DNA from: a virus
Virus genome (UHGV): UHGV-0149279
Strand: one strand, 5' to 3'
Length of the DNA: 14,924 bases
Shown: piece after piece, positions 3,068 through 9,910 of the stretch
Layout of the letters: every line of letters begins with the position of its first letter
Numbering within the stretch: position 1 is the first letter of the stretch
Made by a program: the position numbers and the translations under genes
The notes under the pieces: generated by a model
Told to the model about the DNA's origin: nothing
Seen by the model: only the letters and a program-made list of their open reading frames with translations
Database searches by the model: none

Positions 3068-3408
3068 ACCCCTGCCCTCCCCCAAACCATCAATACTCGC
3101 TTCATCGCCGCGCTGTTGCGGCACTCCTGGCAGATCACGTTTGCCTCTGTACGCTGCACCAGCTTCGAATTTCCCTTCGGCATAGCCGGGATTGTTTCTG
3201 GTGCGTATTTCATGCCGTAATCGGTCAGCCGATAAAGCCGCTGTCCGTGCTTGCCTTCGAACTCGATCAGGCCGTCTGCCAGCAGCGTGCTTAACGGGCC
3301 GGAAATCTTTTTTGTGGTCATGCCGATCATGCTGGCAATACGAGCACTATTCAGCCCTGGGTTATTGCGCAGGGCCGCCAGCACCTGCTCACGGATTGTT
3401 ATGGTCAT
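3064..3408 (-). CDS. winged-helix DNA-binding protein (about 114 aa)
   Basis: Track ORF 3064..3456; preferred start MTITIREQVLAALRNNPGLNSARIASMIGMTTKKISGPLSTLLADGLIE (HTH-like) at 3408 overlaps DnaC-like stop (ATGA). C-terminal CQEC motif. Confidence 0.5.
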   Translation of the reverse strand: MTITIREQVLAALRNNPGLNSARIASMIGMTTKKISGPLSTLLADGLIEFEGKHGQRLYRLTDYGMKYAPETIPAMPKGNSKLVQRTEANVICQECRNSAAMKRVLMVWGRAGV

Positions 3409-4259
3409 GCTGCCCCCTTGGAACGGTAAGAATCCCAGGTGAATGACAGCGTGCACCCGCCGCCGTCGCTCATGCGGTCAATAACACGCTCACTCACGAA
3501 CGCTGCCAACTCTTCTTTGGTCTGGTTGCTGATCAGGATGGTCGGCTTCATCCGCTCGTACCGGGTGTTGATGATTTCGAACATGATCAGCTTCTCGGCC
3601 TCGCTGCCGAACTGGACGCCAACCTCGTCGATGATCAAAAGGTCCGGAGTGGTGAAGTGCGCAATCACGTCGTTCTCGCTGCGCGTCGCAGTTTTCGACC
3701 ACGTTGATTTGAACTCACGGGCAATCTTCAGCGCGGTGGTAAAAATTACCGGGCTCTGGTGTTTCTCGATGACATCACGGGCGATCGCCAGGGCAAGGTG
3801 GTTTTTACCGGTTCCCGGCTTGCCGCACATCACCAGACCACCTCCCTGCTTCAGCCGCTCGGGCCACTTAGCGGCATACGCCTGACAAACCCGCAGCGCA
3901 CGTTCTGACTCCTTGCCAACCGGCTGATAGTTTTCCAGCGTGCACGTCACAAAGCGCTCAGGGATTTCGAGCTGACGCAGCAGGCGATCGATGTTCTGCT
4001 GGCGAGTGCGGTCTTCCCAACGCTTTTTCTCGTCATACAGGAAGCTCAGCTCATCGCGAAGGCAGCCCGGACAACGAGTCGGCGGCGACGGCAGCTTGAT
4101 TAGGCTGCTGGTAAGCACGCGTTTACGCTGTTCGTATTCGCCGTGTTTCTCGCAAAGCACCGTTTCGAAGACGGTCTCGCAGTTAGGGAGTTGCTCTGGC
4201 GGCCTGCCGAGAACTTCCAGCATTTTTTCGATAGCGTCGATTTTTTCGAGCAGCTCCAT
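3405..4259 (-). CDS. DnaC-like helicase loader (IstB-like AAA+ ATPase), lambda P functional analogue
   Basis: Walker A GKPGTGKNHLA and Walker B LLIIDEVG; N-terminal Cys pairs; preferred start MELLEKID at 4259 with GAGGG RBS just after O stop (track start 4277). Confidence 0.85.
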   Translation of the reverse strand: MELLEKIDAIEKMLEVLGRPPEQLPNCETVFETVLCEKHGEYEQRKRVLTSSLIKLPSPPTRCPGCLRDELSFLYDEKKRWEDRTRQQNIDRLLRQLEIPERFVTCTLENYQPVGKESERALRVCQAYAAKWPERLKQGGGLVMCGKPGTGKNHLALAIARDVIEKHQSPVIFTTALKIAREFKSTWSKTATRSENDVIAHFTTPDLLIIDEVGVQFGSEAEKLIMFEIINTRYERMKPTILISNQTKEELAAFVSERVIDRMSDGGGCTLSFTWDSYRSKGAA

Positions 4260-4261
4260 AC

Positions 4262-5116
4262 TCAGTCCCTCGCCCATGACGGGATTTCAGTCTGGCCATA
4301 GTCCTTGCCAGCGAAGTTCTCGGATACGCGAGTCTGATTGCGGGCTGGCTGCTTGATGCCTTTCGGTTCAAACAATCCCTGCCAGCCGTTCGCAATGCTC
4401 TGGTTGATGATTTCTTCAGGCTGGTATCCGCTGCACTTGCAACGCTCAAGCAGGTTGATGGCCTGGGTTACCGTCTGCTGAGACTTAATCGGTTTCTTCA
4501 GGTCGCGACGATAATCGACCCATGACTTCCAGACTGAAACTGACAGCCATTCAGGAAGGTCAACACCAGCCGGATCGAACGAAGCCGGTTTGGGGGATTT
4601 AGGGGGTTTATTAATATTGTCTTTATTGTCTTTTGTATGTTTGTCTTTTGTGTTTACCTTATTTGGGTAAGTGTCGTTACCTGATTCGGGTAAACATTCC
4701 TTACCTGATTCAGGTAAATTTACCTCTTTCAGGTAACGTTTATTTTCATTACCTGTTTTTGGTAATTTCACCCATTCACTAACCGTTTTGTTAATGCCGA
4801 CAGAACGCCCGATTTGGGTAAATACTCCACGCTTCACTAACGAGCTTTTAGCAGCAGAGCATTTGTGCGGAAGAATGCCGGTGAGGGCAGATAACTGATC
4901 GTTACTAACCCAGTCAGCTTTTTTGTTGAAACCGTATGTTTTACGCATTACAGCCATGAAGACCAGCAACTGATGCTGAGACAATCCAGCCAGCATGACA
5001 GCCTCCAGAAGTTCATTGGCAATACGCGTATAGCCATCATCAAGATCTGCCACGCGCGGCTCCACGACCTGCAAATCAGGCCTGATTGGTGAGATATTGT
5101 TAATTGCTAAGTTCAT
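4262..5116 (-). CDS. O: replication initiation protein O
   Basis: N-terminus [20 protein letters not shown]...RKTYGFNK matches recalled lambda O ([19 protein letters not shown]...RKTYGWNK). Preferred ATG at 5116 with GGGGAGG RBS (track start 5200). Internal iterons, see repeat feature. Confidence 0.85.
4654..4765. repeat. replication origin iterons: five 17-bp repeats TTACC-N7-GGTAA, with adjacent AT-rich tract at about 4600-4653
   Basis: Copies at about 4654-4670, 4677-4693, 4701-4717, 4720-4736, 4749-4765 (TTACCTTATTTGGGTAA, TTACCTGATTCGGGTAA, TTACCTGATTCAGGTAA, TTACCTCTTTCAGGTAA, TTACCTGTTTTTGGTAA), inside the O coding sequence as in ori-lambda. Coordinates +/-1. Confidence 0.6.
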
Positions 5117-5294
5117 CAGCAGCCTCCCCGCCTTTCTTGAAGATGATTTCGACACAAAGCAGAATGCAGTTATCGCAGATAGCAACGCCTGGACCGGCAA
5201 CTATGGTTTTCACGTCGCTATCGATATTGCTTCTGTCGCAGAAAGAGCATTTATGAGTTGCGTGCTGATTTGCCTTTTCGTTTATTACTGGCAT
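5100..5294 (-). CDS. small ClpX-type C4 zinc-finger (ZBD-like) protein, about 64 aa
   Basis: [28 protein letters not shown] = C-x2-C-x21-C-x2-C with the internal GP, matching the ClpX N-terminal zinc-binding domain pattern (recalled CSFCGK...GP.VYICDEC). Preferred ATG at 5294 with GGGAG RBS (track start 5321 is GTG). 3' end overlaps O start. Confidence 0.55.
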
Positions 5295-5955: not shown

Positions 5956-6201
5956 TCAGGCGGCTGTCGATTCATTTTTAATTCGGTCAGGGTTTGCAGC
6001 CTGTAGTAGCCACTCTGCCGTAAACTGCCCTTTTGATGCGTCAGCCAAAAGCTGTGAATAGTTGGTTTTCTCTGTGTACTCAGTGCGAGGCAACGCCGCG
6101 TTCTTTACCCACTTGTGAATAGCAACATTCGACAGACCACATAGGCGTGCCGCTGCGGTTTGTCCGCCTACAGCTTCGATTGCAAATTGCATTGGGTTCA
6201 T
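5956..6201 (-). CDS. Cro-like HTH regulator (YdaS family)
   Basis: 81 aa, divergent from cI; AVGGQTAAARLCGLSNVAIHKW fits the YdaS/Cro-type HTH pattern (A..GGQ.A.ARL.G.S...V..W). Confidence 0.65.
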   Translation of the reverse strand: MNPMQFAIEAVGGQTAAARLCGLSNVAIHKWVKNAALPRTEYTEKTNYSQLLADASKGQFTAEWLLQAANPDRIKNESTAA

Positions 6202-6285
6202 AGTGTTTTCCGTTAACTATATTAACTACAAGTTAAGGTTATATCTTAACTGACAGTTATGTCAACTCTAATTGATAATTAACAC
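6202..6285. promoter_or_regulatory. OR-like operator/promoter region between cro-like gene and cI
   Basis: Two palindromes TTAAC-N5-GTTAA: TTAACTACAAGTTAA (6222-6236) and TTAACTGACAGTTAT (6246-6260), plus extra TTAAC half-sites at 6213-6226. Candidate PR on minus strand: -35 TTGACA (reverse complement of 6260-6265), 16-bp spacer, -10 TATAAC (reverse complement of 6238-6243). Candidate PRM on plus strand: -35 CTGACA 6250-6255, -10 GATAAT 6274-6279, predicted start at or near the cI ATG (leaderless; no SD upstream of cI). Coordinates anchored to cro and cI start codons. Confidence 0.6.
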
Positions 6286-7053
6286 ATGGTTAAAAAAGAC
6301 GATTTAAAAGAAGAATTCTCGAAGAGACTTCGCGCTGCATTGCTTGATGCTGGCGTGGGTGGGCGTGGGCAGGCTGGCAGGATCAGGGAAGCTATGAAGT
6401 CCCAAGGGATTGCTGTATCTGAGCCCGGGATCTGGAAGTGGCTTAACGCATCAGCAATACCAGACCAAACCAATATCCTTGCACTTAGCCGCTGGCTTGG
6501 GGTTCGCCCTGAGTGGCTGGAATACGGAAGGAATGATCCTGAACCTGAACTGCACAGGGTATCATCCATCCCGCCTGAATCTGAGTGGGGAACTGTCGAC
6601 GCTTGGGACAAAAATACCCCCCTACCTGACGATGAGGTGGAAGTACCGTTTCTGAAGGATATCGAGTTTGCGTGTGGTGATGGGCGTGTTCATAGCGAAG
6701 ATCATAACGGCTTTAAACTGAGGTTCTCCAAGGCAACGCTCAGAAGGGTGGGTGCAAATAGTGATGGTTCTGGAGTGCTTTGCTTTCCCGCTTCTGGTGA
6801 CAGCATGGAGCCCGTTATTCCTGACGGCGCAACGGTAGCAGTCGATACAGGCAACAAGCGGATTATTGACGGCGAACTCTATGCTATTAACCAGGGCGAT
6901 TTAAAGCGCATAAAGCAGCTTTATCGAAAGCCTGGTGGGAAGCTATTAATACGAAGCATCAATCGCGATTATGACGATGAAGAGGCTGATGAGGCAGATG
7001 TCGAGATAATCGGTTTTGTGTTCTGGTACTCGGTATTGCGATATCGCCGATAA
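6286..7053 (+). CDS. cI: CI-type prophage repressor (N-terminal HTH, C-terminal S24 LexA-like peptidase domain)
   Basis: C-terminal GDSMEP (Ser nucleophile) and downstream DLKRIKQLY (Lys) as in LexA/CI autocleaving repressors; N-terminal HTH-like region; divergent from cro-like gene. Confidence 0.85.
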   Translation: MVKKDDLKEEFSKRLRAALLDAGVGGRGQAGRIREAMKSQGIAVSEPGIWKWLNASAIPDQTNILALSRWLGVRPEWLEYGRNDPEPELHRVSSIPPESEWGTVDAWDKNTPLPDDEVEVPFLKDIEFACGDGRVHSEDHNGFKLRFSKATLRRVGANSDGSGVLCFPASGDSMEPVIPDGATVAVDTGNKRIIDGELYAINQGDLKRIKQLYRKPGGKLLIRSINRDYDDEEADEADVEIIGFVFWYSVLRYRR

Positions 7054-7058
7054 TTTTA

Positions 7059-7171
7059 GTGGCCTGAAGAGACGTTTGGGTGATAAGAGAATATCTGATA
7101 GTAGGCGTGGTTACTTTGCTCTCGGTTGTTGCGATCGTGCTTATGGTGGCCTGATGAGACGTTTGGGTGAT
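7059..7171 (+). repeat. two copies of a 26-bp direct repeat GTGGCCTGA(A/T)GAGACGTTTGGGTGAT at 7059-7084 and 7146-7171
   Basis: 25/26 identical, 87 bp apart, immediately after the cI stop (7051-7053) and before the AT-rich cassette. Confidence 0.6.
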
Positions 7172-7319
7172 GGGCAAGGTGTTCTGGTCGGCGCATAGCT
7201 GGTGAAAAAATTATTTAATGCGGTGTATTGGCTGATTGTAACCCCATGTAACATCTTGCCGTCACCATTTCGGTGGTTAGATTTTTAATAAAAAAAACAA
7301 ATGTATAGCAAGGTTTTTT

Positions 7320-7799
7320 ATGGATAAAATTAATTACCCACCCCTGTTTGAGCCAGGGCTCCATGACATGGATGAAGCTGGATTAAAATCGTATTGTGTC
7401 GATTGCTTTCCTTCATCATCCAGGCGAGGCATGCTATACTGTAATTTTATACAGCTACTCGAATCTATTCGAGAATTATCTGCTCAATATGGCTGTTTTA
7501 CAGAAATATGGGTTGATGGTTCATACACCACGTCTAAACCAGAGCCTGATGATATTGATATTTTGTTGGTATGTGACTATAGCAATATAAACTCAATACC
7601 TGTCATGCTTCGGGGCCGCGTCGATAATTTGCTTGACCGAAACTACATCAAACAAAACTACAAAATTGATGTCCTACTACTCATGAAGAATTTAGATGAC
7701 CCTAACTATGATTATGAGTACTGGCGTAGCTACTGGCGCGGTTGGTTTGGTTTTGATCGCAGTGAAAACCCGAAAGGGTTAGTGAGGATTTTTTTATGA
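7320..7799 (+). CDS. minimal nucleotidyltransferase-fold (Pol-beta superfamily-like) protein, 159 aa
   Basis: FTEIWVDGSYTTSKPEPDDIDILLV fits hG[GS]-x9-D-x-D-h (compare generic MNT LFGSYARGEATEDSDIDLLV); third acidic residue in a hydrophobic strand at KIDVLLL. AT-rich (roughly 35-42% GC by eye versus above 50% in flanks). RBS AAGG. Family assignment is motif-based inference. Confidence 0.5.
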   Translation: MDKINYPPLFEPGLHDMDEAGLKSYCVDCFPSSSRRGMLYCNFIQLLESIRELSAQYGCFTEIWVDGSYTTSKPEPDDIDILLVCDYSNINSIPVMLRGRVDNLLDRNYIKQNYKIDVLLLMKNLDDPNYDYEYWRSYWRGWFGFDRSENPKGLVRIFL

Positions 7800-8728
7800 A
7801 TGATAAATCAATGTTTAAAAATTGCGATAAACGCATTGATTTCATTCAAAAAGAAGTCGATGCAATGAAGCAAAACAAAACCAGGTCCTTTGCTGACATG
7901 CTTCTTTATCGCTCCATGGATTCTCATCTGAGCGATTTGAAGGCCGAAAAATTAAAGCAAGATAGTCGGCACCCACTTATCGATTTTTTTGAGCTGCGGC
8001 TGAAAGGCTCTGAGGTTGACTTTGGCTCTATTCCTTTAGAGCTGCTTGGGGCTATTTCAACAAATCTTGCAGCGCTAATACAAAGAGCAACACACAAAAT
8101 TGCCTCAGGCAAGGACTCAAAAAAAGTTCCCTACGACGTGAAAAGCTCCTTAAACCTCAGGCTGGCTGATTTATCCCCTGGGTCTACAAAATTGGGCGTC
8201 ACCTTCTCTACAGGAATAGCAGAATTAGTAGAAACAGTACCCAGCAAGGCTGTAAAAGGCATATTCGATTTGTTGTTAAGCGATGACGACAACAACTTCA
8301 TGAATCACGTCGCTGAAATTGGATACAATTCCACTGTAAGCCTTAAGAGAATCGTAGAGGAATGCGATAAACACAACTTAACATTTGATGCAAGTTGGAC
8401 CGGTCCATTTAGTAATGGCACCAAGGTGGCAACTATTGACTCCAATAAAATTAAGTACTTGGTGAGTAGACTTACATCAACCATTTCATCCCCTCCCATT
8501 ACTGAAACGGTTACAGGCGAACTGGTCGTTCTATCCAAATATGGGAAGCTGGAGCTTGATGTTGGTGGTGAACATTTAAAGGCTTCCTATCCGATTGAAA
8601 TGCTAGATTTAATACAAAAAAAACACAAGGTCGGACAGATTGTTTCTCTTTTAGTGGAGACTACTGAGATTCACAATGATCGCATAGGTCTGTACCGTAA
8701 AAACCATCTTGTTAAATCGGTTCTTTAA
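7796..8728 (+). CDS. hypothetical protein, 310 aa, translationally coupled to the upstream NTase-like gene
   Basis: ATGA overlap with upstream stop; AT-rich; no motif I can assign (one R-x4-H match, RSMDSH, near the N-terminus is not sufficient to call HEPN). Confidence 0.6.
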   Translation: MNDKSMFKNCDKRIDFIQKEVDAMKQNKTRSFADMLLYRSMDSHLSDLKAEKLKQDSRHPLIDFFELRLKGSEVDFGSIPLELLGAISTNLAALIQRATHKIASGKDSKKVPYDVKSSLNLRLADLSPGSTKLGVTFSTGIAELVETVPSKAVKGIFDLLLSDDDNNFMNHVAEIGYNSTVSLKRIVEECDKHNLTFDASWTGPFSNGTKVATIDSNKIKYLVSRLTSTISSPPITETVTGELVVLSKYGKLELDVGGEHLKASYPIEMLDLIQKKHKVGQIVSLLVETTEIHNDRIGLYRKNHLVKSVL

Positions 8729-8735
8729 TATCTCA

Positions 8736-8759
8736 CCCGGCCACCGCGCCGGGTTTTTT
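8736..8759 (+). terminator. rho-independent terminator after the cassette
   Basis: CCCGGC-caccgc-GCCGGG stem-loop followed by TTTTTT, starting 8 nt after the stop at 8726-8728. Confidence 0.7.
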
Positions 8760-8843
8760 ATTGCCCACCCATAAAGCCATCCTCCATTCTGCCGATAACT
8801 ATCCAGCCTGAAGCTGATAACAATAACTATCGCAACACTACCT

Positions 8844-8868
8844 GCCCGCCCGTGCGGGCTTTTTTATT
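8844..8868 (+). terminator. second plus-strand rho-independent terminator
   Basis: GCCCGC-ccgt-GCGGGC followed by TTTTTTATT; overlaps the 3' end of the convergent minus-strand ORF 8864..9061. Confidence 0.55.
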
Positions 8869-9061
8869 GTCCTTTCCGCACTATCTCAGCTGCATCCCTG
8901 TTCACACCCTTACCTATCACGTTTCCCGTTTCCTTCCGGTACCGTTCCAGCTTGTCGATGATGTTTTGCTGGGTCATAGGTAAATCTGCCAGTGACAACT
9001 CCATGACCGCCCGCCCCATGGCGTGAACCATCATGTTCACTCTTTCTTCATTCAAGCCCAT
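8864..9061 (-). CDS. small hypothetical protein (65 aa), convergent with the cassette
   Basis: Strong RBS AAGGAG about 8 nt upstream of the ATG on the minus strand (reverse complement of 9062-9075); no recognised motif. Confidence 0.5.
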   Translation of the reverse strand: MGLNEERVNMMVHAMGRAVMELSLADLPMTQQNIIDKLERYRKETGNVIGKGVNRDAAEIVRKGQ

Positions 9062-9169
9062 TACCCACTCCTTTTTGATGTTTTTTTCAGCATATCACAT
9101 GCCAAGCAAATCTATAACCAAACCAAATTAACCAATAAATCATAACCTTAATAACCAACACAGAAATAA

Positions 9170-9212
9170 TTAACCATTGGTTATTGACCGAAAATAACCA
9201 TTAGTTAATAAT
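9170..9212 (+). promoter_or_regulatory. pL-like promoter with two OL-like operators
   Basis: -35 TTGACC 9184-9189, 17-bp spacer, -10 AATAAT 9207-9212. Palindromes with the same TTAAC-N5-GTTAA architecture as OR: TTAACCATTGGTTAT 9170-9184 and ATAACCATTAGTTAA 9194-9208. More TAACC repeats upstream (9110-9160). Confidence 0.5.
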
Positions 9213-9625: not shown

Positions 9626-9910
9626 ATGGCAGACGACGATTATACGATGGCCGAGTTTTGGCGAGACATGAAGCCAGAACTTAAAGAGCGGCGCAGGATA
9701 GCGCGCAACTCGGCACATGAAGGGGTGAAGGCATTCTTTCAGCGTAATGGCGTTGAGTTCGAAGAGGGAGAGAACACCCTCATATTTCGCACGCCGCAAG
9801 GGACTGTTGTTTATTACCCGCCAAGCAAGCGGATGCAGCATAAAACCACATGGCGAACATGCAGCCCTACAGCGTGCATGAATTACGTCAACAAACTCAT
9901 GGCCGCCTAA
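9626..9910 (+). CDS. hypothetical phage protein (94 aa)
   Basis: RBS AGAGGG upstream of ATG; first ORF of the rightward arm after a roughly 410-bp leader. No recognised domain. Confidence 0.5.
   Translation: MADDDYTMAEFWRDMKPELKERRRIARNSAHEGVKAFFQRNGVEFEEGENTLIFRTPQGTVVYYPPSKRMQHKTTWRTCSPTACMNYVNKLMAA

Follow-up and report, generated by a model that had tools for sequence, protein, structure and literature searches.

The window considered here is a stretch of 14,924 nucleotides (14.9 kb) of a virus genome (UHGV-0149279), a phi80-like prophage, within which an 84-bp intergenic region separates a cro-like gene from a divergent cI gene. The cro-like product matches phrog_35, 'transcriptional repressor', at 1.4e-12 and has weak Pfam matches to YdaS_toxin and P22_Cro; a GGA/AGGA Shine-Dalgarno sequence is conserved upstream of its gene. 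The CI protein matches Peptidase_S24 (5e-19, residues 128-245) and phrog_4 (1.7e-46) and carries the Ser/Lys dyad as GDS(173)M and LK(208)R. Residues ~95-255, comprising the linker and the S24 domain and including the ...EFACGDG... segment, are about 97% identical to phi80 CI; the N-terminal domain has no significant similarity to that of phi80, so CI is a mosaic repressor. This N-terminal domain has its own phrog_4 match (2.8e-8) and a weak HTH_3 match at residues 44-78, and aligns with the helix-turn-helix of the 933W repressor. The cleavage site of phi80 CI is presumably Cys-Gly, for which no literature source was found. Sequence searches of the PDB with CI and Cro gave no significant match, and an Rfam scan of the whole window returned no family, which leaves the switch and its surroundings without a known RNA element. 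The features between and around the two genes are as follows.

5956-6201, minus strand: cro-like gene (open reading frame), 81 aa, YdaS/Cro-type helix-turn-helix
6213-6217: orphan TTAAC half-site within the untranslated 5' leader of cro, 9 bp away from OR1's left half
6222-6236: OR1, TTAACTACAAGTTAA, perfect palindrome that covers the PR start and the last part of the PR -10
6236-6243, minus strand: PR -10 region, two overlapping candidate hexamers
6246-6260: OR2, TTAACTGACAGTTAT, one mismatch, within the PR spacer and covering the PRM -35
6250-6255, plus strand: candidate PRM -35, CTGACA, inside OR2, from the promoter scan of the window and relatives
6260-6265, minus strand: PR -35, TTGACA, invariant in 22 of 22 versions
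6274-6279, plus strand: PRM -10, GATAAT, its last T being the first base of OR3
6279-6293: OR3, TTAACACATGGTTAA, perfect palindrome, across the PRM start and the cI ATG (6286)
6286-6288, plus strand: cI ATG, also the predicted PRM transcription start (leaderless mRNA)
6286-7053, plus strand: cI, 255 aa, 933W-related helix-turn-helix N-terminal domain and phi80-type S24 autocleavage domain

The first-pass annotation had described two 15-bp palindromes with identical half-sites, at 6222-6236 and 6246-6260. Both palindromes are present, but their half-sites are not all identical, the right half of the second being GTTAT and that palindrome hence imperfect; a third operator, at 6279-6293, had been overlooked. 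A scan of the window for TTAAC-N5-GTTAA, the motif which that annotation had named, finds five sites with at most one mismatch, three at OR and two at the pL-like promoter, against 0.26 +/- 0.48 expected; none of 200 dinucleotide-preserving shuffles contains five or more matches. OR1 and OR2 are spaced 24 bp apart, and OR2 and OR3 33 bp (32 bp in some relatives).

Conservation of these sites was followed in about 50 related loci, each covered over approximately +/-4 kb, which provide 22 distinct versions of the cro-cI region. Among the half-site columns of these 22 versions, 3 of 30 are variable, compared with 30 of 37 among the remaining intergenic columns (Fisher p=3.7e-9). All 10 half-site bases of OR1 are invariant while three of its five center bases vary; at OR3, 21 of 22 versions keep the half-sites unchanged, the wobble T of Val codon 2 among them, and the two center bases before the ATG vary freely. 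OR2 has nearly invariant half-sites as well, but here, in contrast to OR1 and OR3, the center (TGACA) is also kept, in line with its second role as the PRM -35. Promoter columns are similarly constrained: none of the five PR -35 columns outside the operator varies, and one of the five PRM -10 columns does. The orphan half-site keeps its TTA throughout and its AC in 20 of 22 versions, between flanks that vary. Across all of the roughly 50 loci OR1 and OR3 are present, and OR2 is found with one or two mismatches; stray matches to the motif number only four in about 400 kb, and Escherichia coli CX21 has the same five-site pattern.

This behavior, near-invariant half-sites whose centers and flanks drift across relatives, supports a role of the palindromes as operators. 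The alternative, that they are chance matches, draws on the AT-richness of both the motif and intergenic regions generally; it is extremely improbable, and was rejected, given the shuffles without five matches and the retention of half-sites, not of centers or flanks, in relatives whose CI N-terminal domains are 70-100% identical.

The same half-site architecture had been said to recur at a pL-like promoter at 9170-9208, and it does, as two sites with one mismatch each in the window, a pair that is kept in every locus with enough sequence.

9129-9143: candidate degenerate third OL site (low confidence), TTAACCAATAAATCA, three mismatches to the consensus
9170-9184: OL2, TTAACCATTGGTTAT, one mismatch, its last T being the first base of the pL -35
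9184-9212, plus strand: pL, TTGACC-17-AATAAT, from the promoter scan, directed rightwards into a phi80-type nutL region
9194-9208: OL1, ATAACCATTAGTTAA, one mismatch, in the pL spacer and overlapping the -10

OL1 and OL2 are spaced 24 bp apart, as is the OL pair in every locus with enough sequence, and this holds although the distance from cI to pL ranges from 0.92 to 2.9 kb among the loci and the intervening cargo differs. In 41 distinct versions the half-sites of OL2 are invariant, as are TTGAC[C/T] and TAATAAT of pL. Identity with phi80 begins 5 nt after the pL -10, which lies in the same register as the annotated phi80 pL -10; a window gene farther on (9626-9910) was considered as a phi80 N protein and showed no similarity. 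Clear OL operators thus number two, plus the degenerate candidate at 9129-9143, 41 bp upstream of OL2, in which the left AAATT[A/C]AC and the 'TCA' of the right half are conserved in the 41 versions. TAACC half-sites are clustered at 9115-9195, with six in these 81 bp and 13 in the rest of the window.

The sites, the CI N-terminal domain, and cro travel together as a single module. In 24 distinct CI N-terminal domains the recognition helix, EPGIWKW, never varies, although conservation of this helix and of the first codons is partly built into the sample because the relatives were retrieved with the peptides MVKKD[DE]L and SEPGIWK. The sites do not track the phi80-type CI C-terminal domain or the cII/YdaT gene: phi80 and HK225 share the one or the other with the window prophage, yet carry TCAAC-type operators.

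The promoters are less simply assigned. The first-pass annotation proposed a PR composed of TTGACA and TATAAC with an operator in its spacer; both hexamers and OR2 are there, but TATAAC is not conserved in the family, and the pattern that is, TAnnnT, lies two bases downstream. The -10 has two candidates, TATAAC (6243-6238) at a spacer of 16, in the register found in 933W, whose equivalent is CATAAT at spacer 16, and TAACCT (6241-6236) at a spacer of 18. In relatives the spacer-16 hexamer loses its A2 (ATTAAT, GTTAAT, TGTATT), whereas the spacer-18 hexamer reads TAnnnT in every version, with plus-strand T6240, A6241, and A6236 invariant; the promoter scan of relatives calls the PR of phage 75/02 at spacer 18 and that of one other relative (L045) in both registers. 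In the window the -10 is weak in both, TAACCT matching at three of six positions and TATAAC lacking T at position 6, which is why the promoter scan makes no call at TTGACA/TATAAC. The register of the PR -10 is uncertain, being ambiguous within 2 bp.

For PRM the scan calls CTGACA-18-GATAAT (6250-6279, plus strand). The proposal of GATAAT at 6274-6279 as its -10 holds up well, the hexamer being GATA[A/C]T in 22 of 22 versions, always 6 nt before the ATG and with A2 and T6 kept; the eight bases upstream of it vary and include a 1-nt indel that changes the spacer from 18 to 17. The -35 is CTGACA except in two of the 22 versions, which have CTGAAA. The promoters had been described as back to back; instead they overlap, because OR2 occupies both the PRM -35 and the PR spacer (core elements at 6236-6265 for PR and 6250-6279 for PRM).

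That cI lacks a Shine-Dalgarno sequence and that PRM would start transcription at its ATG, as also proposed earlier, agrees with the sequence comparisons. The A of the ATG is the seventh base after the PRM -10, and the 20 nt upstream show no anti-Shine-Dalgarno pairing (+0.6 kcal/mol, compared with -3.5 to -6.0 for cro); no variant examined has a usable Shine-Dalgarno sequence before cI. What fixes the cI start at 6286 is a TAA that lies in frame two codons before it, together with purifying selection acting on codons 1-36 (e.g., six synonymous and no non-synonymous changes, or nine and one). M37, which is preceded by AGGGA, was considered as an alternative start and rejected, as it is not conserved and codons 1-36 are under this selection. 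With the gap between -10 and ATG fixed, the Shine-Dalgarno sequence absent, and the N-terminus under selection, the predicted leaderless cI mRNA is well supported by comparison.

It is rather unlikely that the lysogenic transcript instead begins upstream in vivo, for example at A6284 or at a PRE-type promoter read through cro, with the ATG used independently of a Shine-Dalgarno sequence in an A/U-rich leader. The equivalent -10 of 933W, TAGTAT, is 7 nt rather than 6 from the ATG, so that the 933W start may lie 1 nt upstream, and a gene for a cII-like (YdaT) activator lies downstream of cro in the window; in CP-933P, YdaT drives a PRE promoter (PMC9986795). An establishment transcript of the PRE type, with its long leader, must accordingly be translated from the same Shine-Dalgarno-less cI ATG. 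Against an upstream start stand the fixed 6-nt distance of GATA[A/C]T from the ATG in 22 versions in which neighboring bases and the -35/-10 spacer change, the A of the ATG as the only invariant purine at the canonical +1, and the lack of a usable Shine-Dalgarno sequence in any variant. There are also precedents for leaderless transcripts. The lambda cI message starts at the AUG without a Shine-Dalgarno sequence, and lambda OR3 mediates autorepression. For PaaR2, a CI-like repressor encoded next to ydaS-ydaT, a leaderless mRNA was demonstrated by 5' RACE and N-terminal sequencing (PMC8630535).

The closest architectural counterpart is the switch of the well-studied Shiga-toxin phage 933W, characterized in the Koudelka and Friedman laboratories, for which the GenBank record annotates 15-bp oR1, oR2, and oR3 spaced by 24 and 32 bp, with oR3 over the cI ATG, a pM -35 (CTGAAA) inside oR2, and a pR that overlaps pM, the pM and pR features being labelled 'putative'. 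Five natural 15-bp symmetric sites without an OL3 are described for 933W, at which CI was footprinted and residues S41, K42, and K46 make contacts (PMC3317979). The window OR aligns column by column with 933W oR1-oR3 and the promoters, OL2 with the distal 933W OL site, and OL1 with the proximal one; TTGACA of PR is in the same register as TTGCAA of the annotated pR. The window sites, which exist in excess of chance and are conserved as a module, are thus positional homologues of the 933W operators and promoters. Both systems have 15-bp rotationally symmetric operators with conserved outer bases (positions 2-5) and variable centers, three OR sites at 24 bp and then 32 or 33 bp, an OR3 that spans the cI start codon, a PRM -35 inside OR2 and a PRM -10 abutting OR3, divergent overlapping PR and PRM, and a pL -35 bracketed by two OL sites at a 24-bp spacing, with no clear OL3 beyond the degenerate candidate of the window. 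The proteins are distant homologues as well, CI over its full length (25% overall identity, E=3e-15) and Cro at 35% identity (E=2e-15; both BLASTP).

The differences from 933W lie in the recognition elements and in the accompanying domains. The half-site is TTAAC in the window and [C/T]G[A/T]AC in 933W, with T rather than G at position 2; S41 and K42 of the 933W repressor correspond to E46 and P47, a change that matches the half-site difference at position 2, while the essential K46 is kept as K51. Because the half-site is TTAAC and the S41/K42 equivalents have changed with only K46 kept, the immunity type would differ from that of 933W, and the window prophage and 933W are expected to be heteroimmune. 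In 933W cII is of the lambda type, whereas the window has a YdaT-type gene. The CI C-terminal domain is phi80-type rather than 933W-type; cooperativity and cleavage kinetics may therefore differ from those of 933W CI, and the non-cooperative, affinity-ordered binding of the latter is not transferable to the window.

The region is very probably the OR of a lambdoid lysis-lysogeny switch, with 9170-9212 as its OL/pL partner, CI-bound operators, and a negatively autoregulated PRM. The binding proteins, the order of occupancy, activation of PRM by CI, and the transcription starts in the mechanism inferred for it would be as follows. CI dimers (and, by analogy, Cro) would recognize the 15-bp TTAAC-N5-GTTAA through the helix-turn-helix N-terminal domain. 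The cro-cII-replication transcript would be blocked by CI bound to OR1, which overlies the PR -10 and start, and to OR2, which lies within the PR spacer; the leftward early transcript would be blocked by CI at OL2 and OL1, which bracket the pL -35. The cI gene would be transcribed from PRM (CTGACA-18-GATAAT), most probably starting at the A of the ATG to give a leaderless mRNA, and OR3, which lies across the PRM start, would shut PRM off at higher CI concentrations (negative autoregulation). With 933W as the guide, PRM should be stimulated by CI at OR2 despite the position of this site on the -35 hexamer. Induction would proceed by RecA-stimulated self-cleavage of the phi80-type S24 C-terminal domain, as homology with 933W and phi80 suggests.

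Which protein occupies the sites bears directly on this scheme. It is very unlikely that the palindromes are recognized mainly or only by Cro or another factor, such as a YdaT/cII-like protein, rather than by CI; in favor of such a binder, Cro, like the CI N-terminal domain, co-varies with the sites, and the binding protein is not identifiable from sequence alone. Lambdoid CI and Cro, however, share operators. YdaT/cII was rejected as the binder, since the YdaT motif of CP-933P, TTGATT-N6-AATCAA, is not enriched in the window (seven matches with up to three mismatches, 8.5 expected) and HK225 has a cII/YdaT gene that is 95% identical, yet different, phi80-type operators. Moreover, the homologous sites of 933W were footprinted by the CI repressor (PMC3317979).

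Relative to the predicted PRM start, OR2 is centered at -33 (or -32) rather than at -42, the position of OR2 at the PRM of lambda and of phi80, and by analogy with lambda an operator on the putative PRM -35 would bring about repression rather than activation. A switch lacking positive autoregulation is accordingly possible, if somewhat doubtful: CI at OR2 would repress both PR and PRM, the latter because OR2 covers its -35, and the CI level would be set by negative feedback at OR2 and OR3 alone, with a fairly strong, constitutive PRM that is freed only when filling of OR1 removes polymerase from the overlapping PR. The position of OR2, a PRM near consensus (10 of 12 matches), and the perfect palindrome of OR3 all agree with this, as do the overlapping cores at 6236-6265 and 6250-6279, since two polymerases cannot bind PR and PRM at once when these elements overlap. 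Nor, with OR3 as perfect as OR1, would a ranking of affinities by sequence lead one to expect an active PRM in a lysogen. On the other side, the repressor of 933W, which has the same geometry, is reported first to activate and then to repress PRM (PMC5977221, citing Bullwinkle and Koudelka, 2011), and this favors the expectation of stimulation from OR2.

Lambda resembles the window in its divergent PR and PRM, three OR sites, 24-bp OR1-OR2 spacing, OL partner, and S24 autocleaving repressor. Its operators, in contrast, are 17 bp long and unrelated in sequence to those of the window, it has three OL sites, and its PR and PRM cores do not overlap, with starts 82 bp apart compared with about 55-57 bp in the window.

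Phage phi80 shares with the window the pL -35 TTGACC and its register, the downstream nutL region, and a YdaT-type cII, as well as the 5-N5-5 operator geometry (phi80 OR1 is TCAACACCATGTTAA). Its half-site, TCAAC, has C at position 2 where the window has T, and no phi80 operators are found in the window; the two Cro proteins are 39% identical over 41 aa (E=2e-4). The OR spacings come in the opposite order in phi80 (33 then 24 bp), OR2 abuts the PRM -35 rather than covering it, PRM has a 13-nt leader with a Shine-Dalgarno sequence, unlike that of the window, and three OL sites are annotated.

CP-933P, a cryptic prophage of E. coli O157:H7, likewise has a CI-like repressor divergent from ydaS(cro)-ydaT(cII), with a short intergenic region and overlapping operators and promoters, and a second operator set at a pL-like promoter (PMC8630535). 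Its repressor, PaaR2, lacks the S24 domain found in the window CI, and its repeats, four 18-bp palindromes with the consensus GTTTAGTAA, have an operator specificity unrelated to that of the window.

The switch appears, from its sequence, to be a 933W-type architecture that uses another recognition sequence, and so an immunity type that is new and sound, if ordinary, with a specificity that would be defined by the operator sequence, promoters, and repressor module identified here. Nothing known is overturned by it; in comparison with 933W and phi80 it illustrates how lambdoid immunity diversifies by swapping the N-terminal domain, operators, and cro as a module while the architecture is kept. 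More tentatively, a natural specificity series may exist, made up of the window prophage, 933W, and phi80, in which the window has a 933W-type DNA-binding module fused to a phi80-type oligomerization and cleavage domain in a compact switch with OR2 on the PRM -35. Within such a series the 5-N5-5 geometry and the AAC core would be shared, and T, G, or C at half-site position 2 may pair with E-P, S-K, or S-P/Q-T as the first residues of the recognition helix, respectively. If heteroimmunity rests on about one base pair per half-site and a chimeric CI alters the logic of the switch (cooperative versus non-cooperative binding, activation versus pure autorepression), this would be a tractable system for the evolution of immunity by module exchange. 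The operators also give a ready-made orthogonal repressor/operator pair.

No experimental study of the immunity type of the window prophage was found, and literature searches on the motif and on the related Stx phages brought up no account of TTAAC-N5-GTTAA operators, one match proving to be a primer sequence; nor was there an experimental study of the operators of the Stx phages 75/02 Stx, POCJ13, and phiSTEC1589-Stx1c. The immunity type is found in Enterobacter, Rahnella, and a few E. coli (9 of 5426 complete genomes); a diverged form of it is carried by these three Stx1-converting phages of Shigella and E. coli. Their CI and Cro proteins are 75% and 81% identical to those of the window (the Cro value being that for 75/02); they match the window in half-sites, spacings, PRM -10, and PR -35 and also have an OL pair, while OR2 has two mismatches and the centers and flanks differ. 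Their Sepvirinae backbone and lambda-type cII set them apart from the window prophage, with which they are nonetheless probably homoimmune or cross-reacting, and the operators allow predictions of superinfection immunity and of cross-immunity with Stx phages.

The interval between the cro-like gene and cI is supported as the immunity switch of the prophage, as the first-pass annotation had proposed, with corrections: it carries three OR operators, one of them (OR2) imperfect, its promoters overlap, and the PR -10 element is uncertain. The two genes, on the minus and plus strands, respectively, are separated by 84 bp (6202-6285), and cro is followed by a cII analogue of YdaT type. The switch belongs to a known, well-studied type but has a new immunity specificity; this immunity type is uncommon in E. 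coli (present in 9 of 5426 complete genomes), and Stx1 phages infecting Shigella and E. coli carry a related form.

Features of the immunity region
5956..6201, minus strand: cro-like gene; phrog_35 match, with weak YdaS and P22_Cro matches
6222-6236: OR1; perfect match to TTAAC-N5-GTTAA
6246-6260: OR2; right half GTTAT
6279-6293: OR3; perfect match, covering the cI ATG
6286..7053, plus strand: cI; Peptidase_S24 (5e-19) and phage repressor family phrog_4 (1.7e-46)
8864..9061, minus strand: 65-aa gene; phrog_3975, without a Pfam match
9170-9184 and 9194-9208: OL2 and OL1, the pL operator pair

The motif scan suggested with the original annotation, run on the window with at most one mismatch to TTAAC-N5-GTTAA, gave five matches in 14.9 kb against 0.26 expected, a count attained in none of 200 shuffles. 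It recovered both palindromes originally described between the genes, although the description of their half-sites as identical is slightly off because OR2 ends in GTTAT; it added the perfect site OR3, missing from the original list, and bore out the claim that the same half-site architecture recurs at pL.

Relatives were gathered using the CI N-terminal domain and comprise Stx phage 75/02 (CI 75% and Cro 81% identical), E. coli CX21, three genome loci (Enterobacter sichuanensis, an Enterobacteriaceae MAG, and Rahnella) and 44 IMG/VR loci; these share 70-100% identity with the window in that domain and yield 22 distinct cro-cI versions. Across these versions 3 of 30 half-site columns vary, versus 30 of 37 other intergenic columns (Fisher p=3.7e-9). 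The centers of OR1 and OR3 vary freely, the ATG excepted, whereas the OR2 center, TGACA, is conserved, which fits a second role as the PRM -35. Wherever a locus extends far enough, it has an OL pair with 24-bp spacing at 0.92 to 2.9 kb from cI, regardless of cargo, and only four stray operator matches occur in ~400 kb. EPGIWKW is invariant in 24 distinct CI N-terminal domains, but the peptides used for retrieval (MVKKD[DE]L and SEPGIWK) mean that conservation of the first codons and recognition helix is partly built into the sample; the wobble T of Val2 and the loci carrying TEPGIWK fall outside this bias. A lone TTAAC half-site at 6213-6217, in the cro 5' untranslated region, lies 9 bp from the OR1 left half in direct orientation and has no partner, with TTA kept in 22 of 22 versions.

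CI proteins related more remotely (33-37% N-terminal domain identity) lead to the Shiga-toxin phage 933W, whose CI and Cro are homologous to those of the window (E=3e-15 and 2e-15) and whose OR and OL regions align with it column by column in every feature. The 933W GenBank record gives three 15-bp operators with spacings of 24 and 32 bp, oR3 covering the cI start codon; pM is CTGAAA-16-TAGTAT, with its -35 within oR2 and its -10 abutting oR3, and pR, TTGCAA-16-CATAAT, overlaps pM by 16 bp. In the 933W OL region two 15-bp sites, 24 bp apart, flank the pL -35 on both sides. The 933W site is symmetric, with positions 2-5 conserved, and there are five natural sites, without OL3 and without cooperativity; S41 of CI reads position 2, K42 positions 2, 3 and 5, and the essential K46 position 4 (PMC3317979). 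The window CI retains K46 (as K51) but has E46 and P47 in place of S41 and K42. Correspondingly, AAC is kept at half-site positions 3-5, while position 2, the main difference among the three operator types, is T in the window, G in 933W and C in phi80.

A promoter scan independently returned CTGACA-18-GATAAT at 6250-6279 (plus strand), the candidate PRM, and TTGACC-17-AATAAT at 9184-9212 (plus strand), which is pL; pL, as TTGAC[C/T]-17-AATAAT, does not vary across 41 versions. The near-consensus PR of the first-pass annotation (TTGACA at 6265..6260, 16 nt, TATAAC at 6243..6238) is present but was missed by the scan because TATAAC lacks T at position 6. Its -35 is invariant in all 22 versions; its -10 is not kept, with relatives showing ATTAAT, GTTAAT or TGTATT, all without A at position 2. 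A register two bases downstream (spacer 18) has TAnnnT in every version (TAACCT in the window, TAATAT in 75/02, TATTAT at locus L045), whereas 933W and its close relatives have a good -10, CATAAT, in the spacer-16 register. The PR -10 can thus be placed only to within 2 bp, with a predicted start at ~6231 (spacer 16) or ~6229 (spacer 18), within OR1 in both cases. The promoter pair is divergent, as proposed, and is not just back-to-back but overlapping.

The candidate PRM -10 at 6274-6279 is GATA[A/C]T in all 22 versions, with a constant 6-nt gap to the ATG; the bases immediately before the hexamer vary and include a 1-nt indel, giving an OR2-OR3 spacing of 33 or 32 bp and PRM spacers of 18 or 17. 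An in-frame TAA lies two codons 5' of the ATG in all variants, and codons 1-36 change mostly synonymously among close relatives (6 synonymous and 0 non-synonymous; 9 and 1); M37 was rejected as an alternative start, the residue not being conserved. As originally noted, cI lacks a Shine-Dalgarno sequence, the 20 nt upstream showing no anti-Shine-Dalgarno pairing (+0.6 kcal/mol); cro has a conserved GGA/AGGA (-3.5 to -6.0 kcal/mol). Because the A of the ATG is the seventh base after the -10 and the gap is fixed, a leaderless cI mRNA is the best reading and a fairly probable one. Lambda cI is a precedent for a leaderless repressor mRNA. PaaR2 of CP-933P, encoded next to ydaS-ydaT, also has a leaderless mRNA by 5' RACE (PMC8630535).

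CI at OR1 and OR2 would block PR, CI at OL2 and OL1 would block pL, and OR3, over the PRM start, would allow negative autoregulation. Relative to the predicted PRM start, the OR2 center is at -33 (or -32) and falls on the -35 hexamer; by lambda rules a repressor site so placed would repress PRM. The rival outcome, in which CI only represses PRM and the promoter gains from reduced competition with the overlapping PR, is nevertheless less likely; activation of PRM by CI at OR2 is somewhat favored by analogy, since in 933W, with the same geometry, the repressor is reported to activate PRM at first and to repress it afterward (PMC5977221).

At the DNA level the nearest cultured phage is phi80. From ~residue 95 onward, a part that comprises the linker and S24 domain, the window CI is ~97% identical to phi80 CI, while the N-terminal DNA-binding domain has no similarity to that of phi80 and Cro is barely similar. 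The change from 933W-related to phi80-type sequence at ~6555-6570 (codons ~90-95) is a recombination junction, making the repressor a domain mosaic joined in the linker. With a C-terminal domain of phi80 type, the window CI cannot be assumed to share the cooperativity or cleavage behavior of its 933W counterpart. RecA-dependent cleavage of phi80 CI occurs at a Cys-Gly bond, and the ...EFACGDG... segment is identical in the window. Identity with the nutL region of phi80 sets in directly after the pL -10, at the register that the phi80 annotation gives for its pL. The operators of phi80 are different (TCAAC type), and HK225, with a cII 95% identical to that of the window, has phi80-type operators; the TTAAC sites are thus linked to cro and the CI N-terminal domain rather than to cII or the C-terminal domain, as would be expected of an immunity module. 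The phi80 OR1 (TCAACACCATGTTAA; 3798-3812 of its locus, L001) is one mismatch from the window consensus, with right half GTTAA; the HK225 site considered alongside it is at 3320-3334 of L058.

On the plus strand, TAACC occurs six times in 81 bp (9115-9195) versus 13 times in the other 14.8 kb, and upstream of the phi80 pL the phi80 half-site (AAATCAAC) is repeated in a comparable run. Such repeats may serve the repressor as accessory sites of low affinity or be what is left of an OL3. Because the TAACC run lies between pL and the divergent gene at 8864..9061, that gene may be under CI control; it is kept directly upstream of pL in 6 of 6 identical-CI loci, whatever the adjoining cargo.

The cI-pL slot (7054-9169) is the rexAB-equivalent position and looks like a site for morons or defense genes. 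Its cargo differs among prophages encoding identical CI (the window and loci L052-L057), which accounts for the range of OR-OL distances: the window has DUF6932 and a 310-aa protein (7320-8728), and others have KilA-N/BstA_C, DUF7946/DUF7947, or YoaK with a 299-aa protein. Despite the phi80-identical nutL region, the 94-aa ORF at the phi80 N position (9626..9910, plus strand) does not detectably resemble phi80 N and matches nothing in Pfam or PHROG; related loci have the same protein or a 98-aa Phage_N_antitermin protein there. The replication module (3405-5200, minus strand) encodes a Phage_rep_O protein and a DnaC/IstB-like ATPase, and in other prophages with this CI, O is paired with lambda P or with DnaB, so replication genes are swapped independently of the immunity module.
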